NCBI GenBank assembly: GCA_951812955.1
Contig: OX638340.1
Location: forward strand, 1,632,001 to 1,696,000
Origin: an uncultured Gemmatimonadota bacterium
GTDB taxonomy: Bacteria; JAAXHH01
Direction of reading: 5' to 3'
DNA: 64,000 nt
Positions 50,545 to 55,550 of this stretch are shown here, one piece after another (positions within the stretch are counted from its first letter, which is position 1; each line of letters starts with the position of its first letter). A program made the position numbers and the translations under genes. The notes beneath the pieces are model-generated. The model saw only the letters and a program-made list of their open reading frames with translations. It was not told where the DNA came from and searched no databases.

Positions 50545-51747
50545 ATGCCCATCACGGAGGTCCGCGTTCGGCAGGTTGCCGTCCCGAGGATCTATGACAC
50601 TTATTGCGCGGACCCCAAGCACTTGAAGGCTACCATCGACCACGGCCGGTCTACCTACCAGATCATCGAACTGAAGACCCATGATGGCCTGACCGGAATC
50701 GGCGAGGTCTCCGATATCGCGCCGCGGATGGACGCGCCTTCACCCGGATCATTGCAGGACATAGTGTCCAGCGTGCTGGAAGGCGGTGACCCTGCCGCGT
50801 GGCGCAACCTGCATGACCGGGCCGGGGAAGCGCTTCCCGGAGACCTGTACCCGGAACTCAGGCAGTTGATTCTCTTCGGTTTGGAAAGTTCATTGCTCGA
50901 CCTGGTCGGCAAGGCGTACGGCATTCCTCTTTACGAGCTCCTGGGCGGACGATGCCGGCACGCCGCCGCTGTCTCGTGGGTAGCCTACCTGCGCGGCGAC
51001 GCCGCCCTCGAAGATGAGCTGCAGGCGCTCGAGCTGGAGATGGCAGACCAGGTGGGATCGGGCATGAAGGCCTTCAAGCTCAAGGTGGGCGAGGACCACG
51101 AACGCGACCTGGAGAGGGTCCGGCTGGCACGGAGGATCGCGGGAGCCGGAGCGTACATCAAGGTGGATGCCAGCGGTTTCTGGGAAGAAGACGAGGCCCT
51201 GTCCAGGCTGCACGACATGGCGGAGGCCGGCGCCGACGCGTGCGAGACGCCGATTCGCGCGCTCTCGAGACCCATGTCGCGGGAGGATCCCGCCCGAATC
51301 GAATCAGAAGCGGACGGGATTGCCGAAGCGCTGGCAGGTGTCCGCGGCAGTTCCCCCATACCGATCATCGAGCATGTCGCCGATCTCGGAGATGTATTCC
51401 TGACGGCCCTGATCCGGCGTCGCGCCGTGGACATCGTCAACGTCGTTCCCTGCCAGGCCGGCGGGCTGCGCCGCGCCAAGCGACTGCTCCACGCCGCAGA
51501 GACCGCGGGCATGCCCGCATTGCTGGGCAGCACGATCGAATTGGGACCCGGAACGGCGGCGGCGGTACATCTCGCCGTTTCGTCGGCAAGCGTCAACGTG
51601 CCCTCGGACCTGGTGGGTCCCGGACTGCTCCAGGACGACGTGTGCACCACCCCATTCACCCTCGAAGGAGGTGAGCTTTCGCCTTTCAAGGGGCCGGGAC
51701 TCGGCATCGAGCTGGATGAAGAGAAACTGGCGCGGTGGACGGGTTAA
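50545..51747 (+). CDS. Enolase-superfamily protein (mandelate racemase/muconate-lactonizing enzyme family)
   Basis: Capping domain plus a TIM barrel with KxK (FKLKVG) and metal-binding Asp/Glu at the expected spacing. 400 aa. Confidence 0.75.
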   Translation: MPITEVRVRQVAVPRIYDTYCADPKHLKATIDHGRSTYQIIELKTHDGLTGIGEVSDIAPRMDAPSPGSLQDIVSSVLEGGDPAAWRNLHDRAGEALPGDLYPELRQLILFGLESSLLDLVGKAYGIPLYELLGGRCRHAAAVSWVAYLRGDAALEDELQALELEMADQVGSGMKAFKLKVGEDHERDLERVRLARRIAGAGAYIKVDASGFWEEDEALSRLHDMAEAGADACETPIRALSRPMSREDPARIESEADGIAEALAGVRGSSPIPIIEHVADLGDVFLTALIRRRAVDIVNVVPCQAGGLRRAKRLLHAAETAGMPALLGSTIELGPGTAAAVHLAVSSASVNVPSDLVGPGLLQDDVCTTPFTLEGGELSPFKGPGLGIELDEEKLARWTG

Positions 51748-51829: not shown

Positions 51830-52276
51830 TCACCGCCTGAATCTGCCAGAACCGCCTCGCCCCATTTGCGATGCTTCCTCCACCAGTTTATCGAACGTCT
51901 TCATCGCGTCCGGCGAAAGCACACCCTTCAGGTTCGTCTTGAACTGCTTTTCGTTTTCCTCCAGTTGTTCACGCAGCCATTTCCAGTCTTCGGTCTTCCT
52001 GGCCTGTTCCAGCAGCGCGTCCTTCTGCGTTGATGCTTCCTTGACCATGGCGCGCAGTTGCAGCACCTGATCGTCGGTCGTATCCATGCGTATACTAAGC
52101 ACGTGCCAGATCTGATCGACACGGAAGGTGTTCATCGCTTGCATTTGTTCCAACATGGCACTGTTCTGTCCCCGGCCGCCCATTCGGCCGAATCCGCCTC
52201 GCTGCGCGGCCGCGTCGTTGGCGATATAGGCAATCATCATCAGGCCGATTACGGCAAGGTGAAGACGGTATTTCAT
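51830..52276 (-). CDS. Periplasmic LTXXQ-motif protein (Spy/CpxP-family-like), copy 3
   Basis: Signal peptide from MKYRLHLAVIGLMMIAYIANDAAAQ. Helical, with a TTDDQVLQL motif. The listed ORF begins at 52366. Confidence 0.5.
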   Translation of the reverse strand: MKYRLHLAVIGLMMIAYIANDAAAQRGGFGRMGGRGQNSAMLEQMQAMNTFRVDQIWHVLSIRMDTTDDQVLQLRAMVKEASTQKDALLEQARKTEDWKWLREQLEENEKQFKTNLKGVLSPDAMKTFDKLVEEASQMGRGGSGRFRR

Positions 52277-52369
52277 GCTATGACTCCCTTCAATTAGATG
52301 CCGCGGTCGGACTGGGGATCCTTCCGCGGCGGGTTCTCGCTCCAATAACCAGCGGTCAGCTAACAATTG

Positions 52370-52424
52370 AACGGTGAACTTTCATTCTAACGGTGGACTT
52401 TCATTCTAACGGTGGACTTCACTT
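52370..52424. repeat. 19-bp tandem direct repeat (AACGGTG[AG]ACTTTCATTCT) x2.8 between LTXXQ genes 2 and 3
   Basis: Seen directly at 52370-52388, 52389-52407 and 52408-52424 (degenerate). Confidence 0.55.
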
Positions 52425-53088
52425 AACGCCGGTCGCGGAATGATTCACGGCCTCCCCGGCGTCCGCGCATCCCGGAATCCCGGCGTCCGTCGCGCCGGTC
52501 GCGGAATGATTCGCGCAGCTCTTCCTGCTGTTCCGGTGTCAGCACGTTCTTGACCTCGGCGCGGAAGACGGCGCCTCGCTCGAACACGCTGCCCTGCGCC
52601 CTGGACACGGCCGCGGCCAGCTCTTTCACTTTTTCCAGGTCCGGGCTGGTCTCGCCCATCAACTCGTTCAGATCAATCCGTGCGAGCCTCGAATCGGCGC
52701 GAAGCTGGACCATGTCCCGTGCATACGCTGAACGCAGCGTGCTGATCTGTTCCTGTTGCTCGTCTGTGAGTTCGATATTGTTCAATGCCCTGCGGGACAG
52801 GTCGTTCCCGCGCGACCGGTCGTTCCCGCGGGACCTGCCGGTACGTGCTGCGTCGTTATCGGCAAGATTGTGGTCCAGGGCGTCGGCGAACTCTCCCGCT
52901 GATCCTGATTCCGCGAACTCGGCAATTAGCTCGAATTCGGATTCTGCCTCGTGCTCCGCGCCCGCCGTGGCGGCTTCGTGATGGCCGCCGCCCTCATTAT
53001 GACTGATCTTTCCCGCAGCATCGAAAGCCCAGGCCAGAACGGCCACGGACAGCGTGCCTGCGAAGATTCCTGTAATCATCTTTTTCAT
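52423..53088 (-). CDS. Periplasmic LTXXQ-motif protein (Spy/CpxP-family-like), copy 2
   Basis: Signal MKKMITGIFAGTLSVAVLAWA. Two LTxEQ motifs (LTDEQQEQI, LTPEQQEEL). His/Glu-rich N-terminal region. Confidence 0.55.
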   Translation of the reverse strand: MKKMITGIFAGTLSVAVLAWAFDAAGKISHNEGGGHHEAATAGAEHEAESEFELIAEFAESGSAGEFADALDHNLADNDAARTGRSRGNDRSRGNDLSRRALNNIELTDEQQEQISTLRSAYARDMVQLRADSRLARIDLNELMGETSPDLEKVKELAAAVSRAQGSVFERGAVFRAEVKNVLTPEQQEELRESFRDRRDGRRDSGMRGRRGGRESFRDRR

Positions 53089-53166
53089 GCTGTAGCTCCT
53101 TTCGAAATACACCCTGACTGAAATGGTCGCGATCTCCGGAGACCGTTTTCGTGCTTCTCTACATGA

Positions 53167-53196
53167 TTAGACTGGAATCGACGGAGTTTTATTCCC
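53167..53196 (-). promoter_or_regulatory. ECF-type promoter candidate upstream of LTXXQ gene 2: GGGAATAAAA-N14-GTCTAATC on the minus strand
   Basis: It resembles the RpoE-type -35 GGAAC / -10 GTCTAA consensus. The same motif with identical spacing recurs upstream of the ECF sigma gene. Confidence 0.45.
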
Positions 53197-53286
53197 TTTT
53201 TCTTTCGATTGCCTTTTCTTCTCATCTCCTATACCGGGCCCGGCATCCACAGCCGATCCCCAAGCCCGTTCCGGCGGCTCGAAGTT

Positions 53287-53766
53287 TTAATCGCCGTTGT
53301 TTCTCCGGTGCTCATCCGTCCGATCGTTCTCGTGGCTGCCGGATCCGTTACGTCCACCCGGCCTGTTGCGCTCCCGGCGCAAGTCGGGACCACCTTCCCG
53401 GCGGAACTCACGGGCGCGTTCGCGGCGCTGGCGGATACTCTTTATCCGCTCCAGCTGCCTTTCGGTGAGGATGGGTTCCAGGTCCCGATGCAACGAATCG
53501 ACCAGGGTCTGCATCTCGCGCCGGTGACGCATGTAATTCTCCCGGAATCCCGGTTCGTGTTCACCCACCACTTCCCTGATCCTTCGTATCTGCTCCTGGT
53601 CCGGACGCACCATTCTGACCCAGCGATCCACGAAGCGTTCCCGGGTCATCTGGGGCGGCGGCTGCAGGCGGTCCCGGGCGAAGGCGCCCAGGATCAACGC
53701 ACCGCATACCATGCCGATGATCAGCGTGGCCAGCAGAATGGCCGCGGTCTTCAAGTGGATGTTCAT
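53287..53766 (-). CDS. Membrane-anchored LTXXQ-motif protein, copy 1, translationally coupled to the anti-sigma gene
   Basis: N-terminal TM helix (AAILLATLIIGMVCGALILGAFA), an LTERQLERI motif, and an Arg/Glu-rich helical tail. Its start ATGA overlaps the upstream stop. Confidence 0.5.
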   Translation of the reverse strand: MNIHLKTAAILLATLIIGMVCGALILGAFARDRLQPPPQMTRERFVDRWVRMVRPDQEQIRRIREVVGEHEPGFRENYMRHRREMQTLVDSLHRDLEPILTERQLERIKSIRQRRERAREFRREGGPDLRRERNRPGGRNGSGSHENDRTDEHRRNNGD

Positions 53767-54227
53767 AATGCGCCCTCCGTTTCCAGTGCGATCCGCGCGT
53801 CATAGAGGTCTTCAGGGTACAGTTCCTCGGTCAGGCCGAAGGAAGCCGTGAAGGAGACGTTTCCGGTCGTGGCCAGGTTGTAGGTCAACAGCAGCATAGC
53901 GGCGATGGACGCGGCCACCGCCATTCTACGGAACATGAGGGACAACGCAGTCTGGAAATCATGCGTTGCTTCGGCGGTGGAATTCGACACCGGACCGGCC
54001 GCGGACTCCGTCGCCAGACGCTCCATGACCCGGTCGGTGAAGCCCGCCTGGAACGCCGGCGACTCCTGGCCTTCGACGAGACCGCGCAGGTGCATCAATC
54101 GTTCGTATTCTTCCCGAAGGCCCTGGTCGCGCAGGAGCGCCGCGTCCAGGCGGCTTCGTTCACCGGGCGTCAGGGACGTATCGAGCGACCGGTACAGCAG
54201 GTCCAGCTCAGACCGTTTCATGGACAA
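53763..54227 (-). CDS. Putative anti-sigma factor (single TM)
   Basis: 154 aa. It overlaps the 3' end of the ECF sigma gene. It has an N-terminal cytoplasmic helical region and a TM segment (MAVAASIAAMLLLTYNLATTG). Assigned by position and architecture. Confidence 0.5.
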   Translation of the reverse strand: MSMKRSELDLLYRSLDTSLTPGERSRLDAALLRDQGLREEYERLMHLRGLVEGQESPAFQAGFTDRVMERLATESAAGPVSNSTAEATHDFQTALSLMFRRMAVAASIAAMLLLTYNLATTGNVSFTASFGLTEELYPEDLYDARIALETEGAL

Positions 54228-54831
54228 GCTCCCTGTTGGAGTACAGAAGTAATCGTTTCAGCTTCTCCTGGGACCGCCTCAGACGGGAAAGGACCGTCCC
54301 GACGGGAATCCCCAGGATCTCGGCGGTTTCTTTCGTGGAATAGCCTTCCATCAGCCGGAGTACGATAACGGAACGGAATTCCGGTTTCAGTTCCTGCAGC
54401 GCCTGTTGAATCCGGTCGGCCGTGTCGTCGTATTCGGCGCTGGCCCGGGGGTCCGCATAATCCGCCTCCGGTTCGTTGCGGTCCCTGCCTGGCACGGCGA
54501 GGGGTACAATGATCGATCGGCGGCGACGTTTTCTGAGTTCGGAAATCGCCAGGTTGACGGCGATGCGAGTCAGGTAGGTGCCGACCGACGCCTGACCGCG
54601 GAACCCCCGGAGGCCGCGGTAAAAACGGATGAAGGTCTCCTGCCCCACGTCCTCCGCATCGGCGGTGTTCCCGAGCATGCGGATGACGACGGACGCCACG
54701 CGGTCCTTGTGACGTTCCACCAGTTCCCGGAAGGCATCTTCGCTTCCGTCGCGGGCGGCGTCGACCAATGCGGCGTCTTTCAAGGCGTCTTCCCTCATCC
54801 CGTCTCCCTCGAATAACCGTTTTCCGGTCAA
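54208..54831 (-). CDS. ECF-subfamily RNA polymerase sigma-70 factor (RpoE-like)
   Basis: Region 2 (FRELVERHKDRVASVVIRMLGNTADAEDVGQETFIRFYRGL) and region 4 (LKPEFRSVIVLRLMEGYSTKETAEILGIPVGTVLSRLRRS). Start may be the internal Met at 54798. Confidence 0.85.
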   Translation of the reverse strand: MTGKRLFEGDGMREDALKDAALVDAARDGSEDAFRELVERHKDRVASVVIRMLGNTADAEDVGQETFIRFYRGLRGFRGQASVGTYLTRIAVNLAISELRKRRRRSIIVPLAVPGRDRNEPEADYADPRASAEYDDTADRIQQALQELKPEFRSVIVLRLMEGYSTKETAEILGIPVGTVLSRLRRSQEKLKRLLLYSNRELVHETV

Positions 54832-54853
54832 GTCCGATTCCGCTGCCTACTGA

Positions 54854-54883
54854 TTAGACCCCGCCGGCGCCGATTTTATTCCC
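54854..54883 (-). promoter_or_regulatory. ECF-type promoter candidate upstream of the ECF sigma gene (autoregulatory): GGGAATAAAA-N14-GTCTAATC on the minus strand
   Basis: Plus-strand TGATTAGAC-N14-TTTTATTCCC at 54851..54883, identical in both elements and spacing to the copy at 53164..53196. Confidence 0.45.
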
Positions 54884-54974: not shown

Positions 54975-55550
54975 GTGCGGGGCGTATGTCTAGCAATCGC
55001 GTGGCTGTTCTCGCCGCTGTTGGCCGAAGGTCAGGCAAATGCCCGGTTAGGCGGTGGACCCGGCATGCCTGTCGGCGACCTGTCGGACGGTACAGAAGCT
55101 GCAGGCTCTTCATTTCTGGTCGGCGTGGCTATTCCTGTCGACGTTGGTTACTTCCTGCTGCTTGAGGGTCATCACAGTCGTTTCGGAATTAACGAGGAGG
55201 AGCTTCCAGATACGAATGAGCGGGTGAATCCAGATGCCGACATAAAGCTGACGGGCGGCAACGTGGGACTGCTGATTCAGGGCGTGGCGGATCCCGTGGG
55301 ATTCTATGGCCACGGGGGCGTGGGATGGGCCAGAGGTACGGGTAATGGCGAACGCTCTAACGAGGGTGAAGACGCGCGCTTTAATTCGGGCGATAACTCG
55401 TTCATGTTTGTATTTGGTCTCGGGGTCAACTTGACGGTCAGCGACCACGTGAGGCTGTCACTGGAGGCCAGGTACAACCATGCGTTCGATGTGTTCGATG
55501 AAAGTGCCCGGTGGATACCCGTTACCGCCTCCGTGGTGATTCAACTGTAG
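54975..55550 (+). CDS. Outer-membrane beta-barrel protein (OmpW/OmpA-like small barrel)
   Basis: Signal peptide, an amphipathic strand pattern, and an aromatic-rich C-terminus ending VVIQL. Confidence 0.45.
   Translation: MRGVCLAIAWLFSPLLAEGQANARLGGGPGMPVGDLSDGTEAAGSSFLVGVAIPVDVGYFLLLEGHHSRFGINEEELPDTNERVNPDADIKLTGGNVGLLIQGVADPVGFYGHGGVGWARGTGNGERSNEGEDARFNSGDNSFMFVFGLGVNLTVSDHVRLSLEARYNHAFDVFDESARWIPVTASVVIQL

Follow-up and report, generated by a model that had tools for sequence, protein, structure and literature searches.

A 64,000-nucleotide stretch from the genome of an uncultured Gemmatimonadota bacterium (contig OX638340.1, positions 1,632,001 to 1,696,000; here called the window) carries on its minus strand a sigma factor gene of the extracytoplasmic function (ECF) type, followed by a candidate anti-sigma gene and by three further genes that we refer to as L1, L2, and L3. 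A sequence-only reading of the window, made without database searches, had described these five genes with their order and overlaps, and all were recovered as open reading frames (ORFs) at the positions it had assigned. The main features of the locus, including two candidate promoters (P1 and P2), are given below in window coordinates (nt, nucleotides; aa, amino acids).

54851-54883, minus strand: P1, candidate promoter upstream of the sigma gene; -35 box GGGAATAAAA, 14-nt variable spacer, -10 box GTCTAATCA
54208-54798, minus strand: sigma gene; ATG start, 196 aa, as in almost all orthologues from databases
53763-54221, minus strand: anti-sigma candidate; 152 aa, 14-nt overlap with the 3' end of the sigma gene
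53287-53766, minus strand: L1; 159 aa, its ATG overlapping the anti-sigma TGA as ATGA; predicted N-terminal hydrophobic anchor (residues 8-26), helical domain with PDQEQ and LTERQ motifs, Arg/Gly-rich tail
53164-53196, minus strand: P2, candidate promoter upstream of L2; second exact copy of GGGAATAAAA-N14-GTCTAATCA
52423-53088, minus strand: L2; 221 aa, 198-nt gap from L1; predicted hydrophobic segment (residues 4-22) ending in AWA, His/acid-rich N-terminal region, Arg-rich tail
52300-52330, minus strand: stem-loop in the L2-L3 gap; GCCGCGG...CCGCGGC plus an inner helix
51830-52276, minus strand: L3; 148 aa, predicted to be secreted, 146-nt gap from L2; hydrophobic segment (residues 5-23), Gly/Arg-rich ends, first motif TTDDQ, degenerate second motif LSPDA

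The sigma ORF has an alternative TTG opening at 54831. Transmembrane and signal segments of the anti-sigma candidate, L1, L2, and L3 were called by hydropathy only.

To place the locus among its relatives, the sigma protein was scanned against one genome per species, which gave 79 loci (individual loci are cited by numbers such as L001). Twenty-one of these belong to the same lineage, with sigma identities of 76 to 97%, and come from uncultured genomes labeled Gemmatimonadetes or Latescibacterota. The distant set comprises Bacteroidota, Gemmatimonadota, Latescibacterota, Rhodothermales, and KSB1, mostly at 44 to 53% sigma identity. The order sigma, anti-sigma, L1, L2, L3 was kept in 21/21 same-lineage genomes, and an L1 homologue followed the anti-sigma gene in 58/79 related loci from several phyla. 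The core of sigma factor, anti-sigma factor, and L1 is widespread. L2 and L3, an extra unit under a candidate promoter of its own, are an addition specific to this lineage.

A repeated two-box element upstream of the sigma gene and L2

The sequence-only reading had reported a duplicated element with identical spacing, and exact matches to GGGAATAAAA-N14-GTCTAATCA lie at both P1 and P2. These were the only 2 exact matches in the 64 kb; no others appeared even when 2 mismatches were allowed, and 100 dinucleotide-preserving shuffles yielded 0 matches. The shorter core GGAAT-N18-GTCTAA, with 1 mismatch allowed, was found 2 times against 0.49 expected, and at least 2 copies occurred in 8/100 shuffles. 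Because this short core is not beyond chance, the significance of the element rests on its full 19 specified bases and on its conservation. A position weight matrix built from orthologous sites scored the two sites at 35.5 and 33.3 bits and the rest of the 64 kb, on both strands, at less than 10 bits. Transcription from P1 would start ∼7 nt downstream of the -10 box and give a leader of ∼50 nt; the P2 leader would be ∼70 nt. A sigma-70 promoter scan of the locus found none.

Both sites were present in all 21 same-lineage loci, three of which have GTCCAA as the P2 -10 box. Across these loci, the core of the GGAATAAA and GTCTAATC boxes carries 1.3 to 2.0 bits per position and the spacer 0.1 to 0.7 bits, and the spacers of P1 and P2 are unrelated to one another and differ between genomes. 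Conserved boxes around diverged spacers are what a two-box promoter would be expected to show, and a duplicated segment would not. An exact-pattern scan of ∼220 kb of same-lineage loci found no further match. Of the 56 distant loci with enough upstream sequence, 46 have GGAAT[GAC]AA-N∼16-GTC[TCA]AAT in the 260 nt upstream of their sigma genes, counting scores above the 99th percentile of control regions. A metagenome scan for GGAATAAA-N15-GTCTAATC returned mostly low-GC chance matches; among the 120 matches listed, 22 have a same-strand ECF sigma gene 46 to 232 nt downstream, only two P1 sites (L138 and L199) are of this lineage, and no further regulon members appeared. The earlier interpretation of the motif as a sigma-dependent promoter is supported by this retention in close and distant loci and by the ECF link of the metagenome matches. 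Autoregulation from P1, together with a second sigma-dependent promoter at P2, is thus a well-supported prediction.

A different interpretation would make the repeated element the operator of another regulator or the leftover of a local duplication. The bases shared beyond the -10 boxes, TAGGCAGC and TAGAGCAGC, could indeed mean a longer binding site. Nevertheless, the element has two conserved boxes at a fixed spacing with a free spacer between them, it is linked to ECF sigma genes in the 46/56 distant loci and in the 22/120 metagenome matches listed, and its boxes agree with ECF promoter motifs that have been predicted and published. A recent duplication is also countered by the flanks of P1 and P2, which are unrelated. 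We therefore regard an operator or duplication remnant as very improbable.

Several further features of the motif were observed. In L092, L101, L119, L144, L161, L192, and L198, GGAATAAA-N15-GTCTAATC precedes ECF sigma genes that are only 31 to 38% identical to the sigma factor described here, which indicates a promoter type common to more than one ECF group; cross-talk between ECF groups within a genome is conceivable. Three distant loci carry a tandem duplication of the motif upstream of the sigma gene, with the copies ∼100 to 110 nt apart (L036, 4870/4973; L048, 4831/4941; L056, 2100/2210), and the two 29-nt sites of L036 do not differ at all, not even in the spacer. Past the -10 boxes, bases conserved in the lineage read GTAGGCAGCGG after P1 (54838-54850) and TGTAGAGCAGCACGAAG after P2 (53146-53163), both on the minus strand. 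They may represent the region of the start site or a leader element common to both, and no Rfam family matches them. Outside the lineage, a second motif directly after L1 was found in only 6/36 distant loci. It precedes LTXXQ-type or L3-type proteins in half of these (L066, L036, and L031) and, in the other three, a secreted repeat protein, an EF-hand protein, and a TolC-like outer-membrane protein (the last in L072).

The stem-loop between L2 and L3 bears on how L3 is transcribed. It was found in all 22 sequences. In the window, 12 nt separate its end from GGGAGTCATAGC, which includes the ribosome-binding site of L3 and extends to the ATG. Pairing was seen in 91% of cells in 17 distinct sequences, compared to 30 to 57% when the partner columns were slid. 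The pairs are mostly invariant and compensatory changes are few, so that covariation is limited. A T-rich tract lies 3' of the stem-loop in several orthologues; the window is T-poor at this point. In several genomes, the distance from the stem-loop to the ribosome-binding stretch of L3 is 11 to 13 nt, too short to hold a promoter for L3 alone, and L3 would therefore have to be read from P2 through the stem-loop. The stem-loop probably attenuates or stabilizes the transcript such that L2 exceeds L3. Transcripts from P1 may also run into L2, since no clear terminator follows L1. Two other possibilities were ruled out: the stem-loop is unique in the window and so is not a repeated extragenic element, and L3 has no promoter motif of its own scoring at least 10 bits. 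A scan of the locus for intrinsic terminators found terminator-like sites to be no commoner than in shuffles, an Rfam search over the locus gave one sub-threshold chance match only, and the PADLOC defense models returned nothing meaningful.

The five encoded proteins

The first gene encodes an ECF (group 4) sigma factor, as the sequence-only reading had claimed. Pfam Sigma70_r2 (E = 5e-20; 71.4 bits) and Sigma70_r4_2 (E = 6e-14; 52 bits) matched above their gathering scores, as did Sigma70_ECF (E = 7e-7; 29.7 bits versus a cut-off of 21.1) and TIGR02937 (112 bits versus a cut-off of 42.9); no equivalog cut-off was reached. The closest solved relatives are SigW, Mycobacterium tuberculosis SigE, and Escherichia coli RpoE (E = 1e-27 to 1e-21). 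At 196 aa, the protein is too short for regions 1.1 or 3.

A single-pass anti-sigma factor is a plausible assignment for the second gene, based on a sub-cut-off family match, topology, and position, and the corresponding claim of a single-transmembrane candidate is upheld at that strength. The NCBIfam model NF052375 ("antisigma") matched at E = 1.8e-7 (31 bits versus a cut-off of 100) and Pfam RseA_N at E = 0.13 (13.3 bits versus a cut-off of 24), and a sequence search against solved structures found no match. Hydropathy indicated one hydrophobic helix (residues 100 to 118), which would separate a ∼95-aa cytoplasmic domain devoid of cysteines from a ∼34-aa periplasmic tail. In an alignment of 36 homologues, a motif in this tail was conserved across phyla, from this lineage to Bacteroidota. 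A short conserved tail with no periplasmic domain is more in keeping with a peptide for docking than with a domain for sensing.

For the remaining genes, the sequence-only reading had proposed three members of the LTXXQ family. This held for L2 and not for L1 or L3: L2 passes both Pfam thresholds, L1 and L3 have no Pfam match and are remote relatives by profile comparison, and the hidden Markov model (HMM) search for LTXXQ, which had been named beforehand as a refuting test, thus failed for two of the three assignments. The L2 protein matched Metal_resist (PF13801; E = 2.2e-10; 41.2 bits versus a cut-off of 29.2) and LTXXQ (PF07813; E = 6.2e-7; 30.5 bits versus a cut-off of 24.3), carries the motifs LTDEQ and LTPEQ, and also matched the NCBIfam models for Spy (E = 1.8e-8), the CpxP family (E = 4.4e-6), and ZraP (E = 7e-3), all under their equivalog cut-offs. 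Its family profile gave weak matches to the solved structures 5ihf, CpxP, and Spy. By these matches, L2 is a true member of the LTXXQ/Metal_resist superfamily, predicted to be a secreted protein of the Spy/CpxP/ZraP kind. The His/acid-rich stretch near its N terminus reads HNEGGGHHEAATAGAEHEAESE, is expanded to GH-rich repeats in some orthologues, and is absent in L015 to L017.

Two short tandem repeats lie in or next to L2. Inside the gene (52792-52835), the linker that joins the His-rich region to the LTXXQ domain includes the repeated peptide SRGNDR/SRGNDL, encoded by 2.4 copies of an 18-bp repeat; orthologues differ widely in the length of this linker. Just past the stop codon (52370-52419), the 19-bp unit AGAATGAAAGTCCACCGTT (coding strand) is present in 2.6 copies with a 96% match. 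L001 and L002, which are the most closely related, have two copies of this unit that have diverged, and more distant relatives have one or none, suggesting that the window gained a copy.

The L1 protein matched neither LTXXQ nor Metal_resist nor any other Pfam family. However, a profile of the L1 family (24 of the homologues from the 58 loci) aligned with the L2 family at 95.8% probability and E = 8e-9 (hhalign), spanning both motifs. The L1 family consensus reached Metal_resist at E = 3.5e-5 (24.4 bits) and LTXXQ at E = 2.4e-3 (19 bits), both under the gathering scores, and only 1/24 family members matches PF07813 or PF13801. In the 24-sequence alignment, only M1, G18, G22, L100, and Q104 are invariant and L24, P55, and Q59 nearly so; no His, Glu, or Met ligand column is invariant. 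Judged by these profiles, L1 is a remote relative of LTXXQ/Metal_resist proteins and not a Pfam member. A search of the L1 family against solved structures gave apolipoprotein A-I, matches that we rejected as compositional.

L3 is more diverged. Neither the protein nor its consensus matched a Pfam family, a sequence search against solved structures found nothing, and only 56 close homologues were found, none of them annotated. A lineage-only L3 profile did not match L2 (5%). An exhaustive profile search of 1.84 billion representatives added 118 more distant relatives, and the consensus of this wider family contains D-x-Q-L and L-T-x-x-Q motifs. Its profile aligned over 65 columns with the L1 family (95.8%) and over 29 columns with L2 (95.1%); Metal_resist was matched by 5/60 wider family members and LTXXQ by 3/60. 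The AlphaFold model of L3 is all-helical (predicted local distance difference test [pLDDT] score of 70), with CnrX, STV (5io8, Salmonella), and NccX as its top fold matches at a nonsignificant E of 0.6 to 3.5. Since none has an E below 0.5, we count these fold matches as weak support. Taken by its wider profile, L3 appears to be a remote relative within the LTXXQ/Metal_resist superfamily whose second motif has decayed to LSPDA.

All three L proteins have Arg/Gly-rich, probably disordered ends (L1, residues 120 to 159; L2, residues 192 to 221, e.g., RDRRDGRRDSGMRGRRGGRESFRDRR; L3, residues 26 to 36 and 139 to 148), which the LTXXQ fold does not explain.

Related systems and a proposed mechanism

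The sequence-only reading had called the layout unusual, which proved not to be so, because it is a recognized context type in the ECF classification and its core is found in the 58/79 related loci. Casas-Pastor et al. (2021) describe ECF111 with a one-helix anti-sigma factor at +1, an LTXXQ/heavy-metal-resistance protein at +2, and the promoter TTGAACCT-Xn-GTCTAAA; ECF03s10 with an LTXXQ protein at +2; and ECF281 and ECF290 with a heavy-metal-resistance protein at +2 and an anti-sigma factor at +1, which is one-helix in ECF281. They propose envelope-stress or metal-stress roles for these four groups. In gene context and promoter boxes, our locus resembles all four in the order sigma, anti-sigma at +1, and LTXXQ/PF13801 protein at +2 (here the anti-sigma candidate and the remote relative L1) and in having a predicted autoregulatory promoter. 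The -10 box GTCTAA(A) is common to this locus, ECF111, and ECF281. The -35 box, in contrast, is GGAATAAA here, as in ECF26 and ECF207, and differs from those of ECF111 (TTGAACCT), ECF03 (TTAAACC), and ECF281 (GGAACTT). Other differences are that the ECF281 anti-sigma factor has a zinc finger and ours has none, that the host phyla listed for ECF111 differ from the Latescibacterota, Gemmatimonadota, Bacteroidota, Rhodothermales, and KSB1 found here, and that the +2 protein of our loci mostly escapes Pfam, unlike that of ECF111, ECF03s10, ECF281, and ECF290. The conserved peptides of this sigma family were not found in the portion of the supplementary sequence table of the ECF classification that was searched.

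We consider it probable that the locus is an autoregulated envelope-stress (possibly metal-stress) ECF module with two sigma-dependent promoters, in which L1 is the partner of the anti-sigma factor. At rest, the membrane anti-sigma factor would hold the sigma factor. L1 would be made in step with the anti-sigma factor via the ATGA overlap and be tethered to the inner membrane, a helical domain of the Spy/CnrX kind facing the periplasm. On that side, L1 would bind the short conserved periplasmic tail of the anti-sigma factor and so set the stability or conformation of that protein, a role modeled on those of CnrX for CnrY and of CpxP for CpxA. Envelope damage, in the form of misfolded periplasmic proteins or possibly metal ions, would draw L1 off or alter it, such that the anti-sigma factor is inactivated and the sigma factor freed. 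Free sigma factor would then transcribe the sigma, anti-sigma, and L1 genes from P1, giving positive feedback and then a reset, and would transcribe L2, plus L3 through the stem-loop, from P2, supplying soluble periplasmic chaperones of the Spy/ZraP kind. The conserved tail motif, the fixed position of L1, and the overlapping codons suggest that L1 is a partner of the anti-sigma factor rather than a mere output.

Several points weigh against this proposal. The anti-sigma assignment falls below every curated threshold. The AlphaFold model of L1 has a pLDDT of 62, a fold search with it gave no usable matches, and the topology of L1 was derived from homology and hydropathy, with ambiguous flanking charges and a very Arg-rich C terminus. 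The P1 and P2 start sites are predictions from sequence. In addition, the locus singles out neither misfolded protein nor metal as the inducing signal, and L1 may be merely a tethered chaperone that has no regulatory role.

This last point leads to a plain pathway of the sigma-E or sigma-W type, in which the anti-sigma factor is the sole sensor and is removed by regulated proteolysis, L1 to L3 are all output chaperones, and L1 owes its place in the sigma operon solely to being needed at all times. One-helix ECF anti-sigma factors are mostly under regulated proteolysis, as are RseA and RsiW, which favors such a pathway. It would also accommodate three L proteins that belong to one remote superfamily including the chaperone Spy, and the interaction between L1 and the anti-sigma factor is itself only proposed here. 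The envelope-stress systems of E. coli are among the closest known. The sigma factor here is RpoE-like (E = 2e-21 to 1or7) and has a candidate promoter of the GGAAC...GTCTAA type. Envelope stress induces the LTXXQ proteins CpxP and Spy, the former of which exerts feedback on its sensor. In E. coli, however, the LTXXQ proteins are under two-component systems (Cpx and Bae) and not under an ECF sigma factor, and our locus differs from the sigma-E operon in that no RseB or RseC genes are present and L1 to L3 follow the anti-sigma gene. Identity with RpoE/RseA/RseB (ECF02) was rejected, given that the sigma factor scored 109.5 bits against the RpoE equivalog TIGR02939 (cut-off, 236), that RseA_N was also under its cut-off, and that the operon has no RseB or RseC. 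As for L1 as mere output, L1 is kept right after the anti-sigma gene, often with overlapping codons, in 58/79 loci, and the soluble paralogues are not so kept. The anti-sigma factor has no periplasmic domain and only a short conserved tail, and the related proteins CnrX (PMC6851896) and CpxP are known as signaling partners. We regard a pathway with the anti-sigma factor as sole sensor as rather unlikely, and we retain L1 as the probable partner.

A metal response resembling that of CnrYXH is the other explanation to be weighed. L1 would then be a periplasmic metal sensor, a metal ion would free the sigma factor, and L2 would be a ZraP-like metal-binding chaperone or buffer. In Cupriavidus metallidurans, membrane-anchored CnrX holds the C-terminal tail of CnrY in a sensor dimer, and CnrH drives two promoters (PMC6851896). 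The parallels with our locus as predicted are an ECF sigma factor held by a small one-helix anti-sigma factor with a short periplasmic tail, a membrane-anchored, periplasmic, helical third component of the Metal_resist/LTXXQ kind, and two sigma-dependent promoters, one for regulators and one for effectors (PMC6851896). Metal_resist is the best Pfam family for both L2 and the L1 consensus, the corresponding protein is termed a "heavy-metal resistance" protein in the published ECF classification, and a metal response has been suggested for ECF groups of like gene context. The His/acid-rich stretch of L2, with its GH-rich repeats in some orthologues, points the same way, as do L1 His70 and His81, which are invariant within the lineage (His93 is nearly so), the weak top fold matches of L3 to CnrX and NccX, and the TolC-like outer-membrane protein behind the second promoter of L072.

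Against a metal response, the wider L1 family has no conserved His or Met ligands. CnrX uses His42, His46, Glu63, His119, and Met123, and no matching conserved set exists in the wider L1 family, which as a family thus lacks ligands of the CnrX type; no alignment to CnrX was obtained for the lineage-invariant His70 and His81. L015 to L017 lack the His-rich region of L2, and no metal efflux genes lie under P1 or P2 in the lineage, whereas CnrYXH has efflux pump effectors and our locus has periplasmic helical proteins. The gene order is cnrY-cnrX-cnrH in that system as opposed to sigma, anti-sigma, L1 here, and the cytoplasmic domain of its class II anti-sigma factor is ∼45 aa compared to ∼95 aa here (PMC6851896). 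CnrX was absent from the sequence searches of solved structures with the L1 and L2 families and appeared only as the weak fold match to L3. Identity with CnrYXH was rejected by gene order, anti-sigma class, and ligand residues, and we consider a CnrYXH-like metal response unlikely.

Flanking genes and significance

Two neighboring genes flank the module. A divergent gene on the plus strand (54975-55550) encodes an outer-membrane beta-barrel protein (Pfam OMP_b-brl, 32 bits, above the cut-off) and lies 143 nt upstream of the sigma gene and 91 nt from P1. It is matched at full length in 9/21 same-lineage loci and in part in a further 4; L002 has it, and L001, the other of the two closest relatives, does not. 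A functional tie between this gene and the envelope-stress sigma factor is possible. Downstream lies a convergent enolase-superfamily gene (50545-51747, plus strand; MR_MLE domains), which most relatives have intact, as does the window. The two closest genomes give only fragmentary matches (L001, 8059-8482; L002, 8092-8635), suggesting decay or an assembly problem there. Several metagenome-assembled genomes (MAGs) of the lineage may derive from sponge metagenomes, as we read their bin names.

We conclude that the module is real and is probably a fairly ordinary envelope-stress switch, new and uncharacterized, which in this lineage has expanded to include three paralogues and a second candidate promoter. 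It otherwise fits known envelope-stress logic and overturns nothing. A promoter model, GGAATRAA-N16-GTCYAAT, can be derived from the sequence, together with a minimal regulon, for an ECF sigma factor of uncultured lineages that have no genetics, represented by MAGs labeled Latescibacterota or Gemmatimonadetes. The model can be used for regulon mapping in complete genomes of the lineage and, like the putative orthogonal pair of sigma and anti-sigma factors, is testable in E. coli.

A tethered LTXXQ-like protein strictly linked to an anti-sigma factor over several phyla suggests a three-part sensor, a context that has been noted in gene-context surveys and never dissected. More tentatively, it is possible that the trio of sigma factor, anti-sigma factor, and L1 represents an ECF family that is widespread and unstudied in the Fibrobacteres-Chlorobi-Bacteroidetes group and neighboring phyla, with a tethered Spy/CpxP-like protein as an obligatory third component that docks on the anti-sigma tail. 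If this is true, stress would be sensed by drawing a chaperone off its partner, which is the logic of Cpx wired to an ECF sigma factor instead of a two-component system. In this lineage, the two soluble, sigma-induced paralogues could then vie for the same clients and so tune the response.

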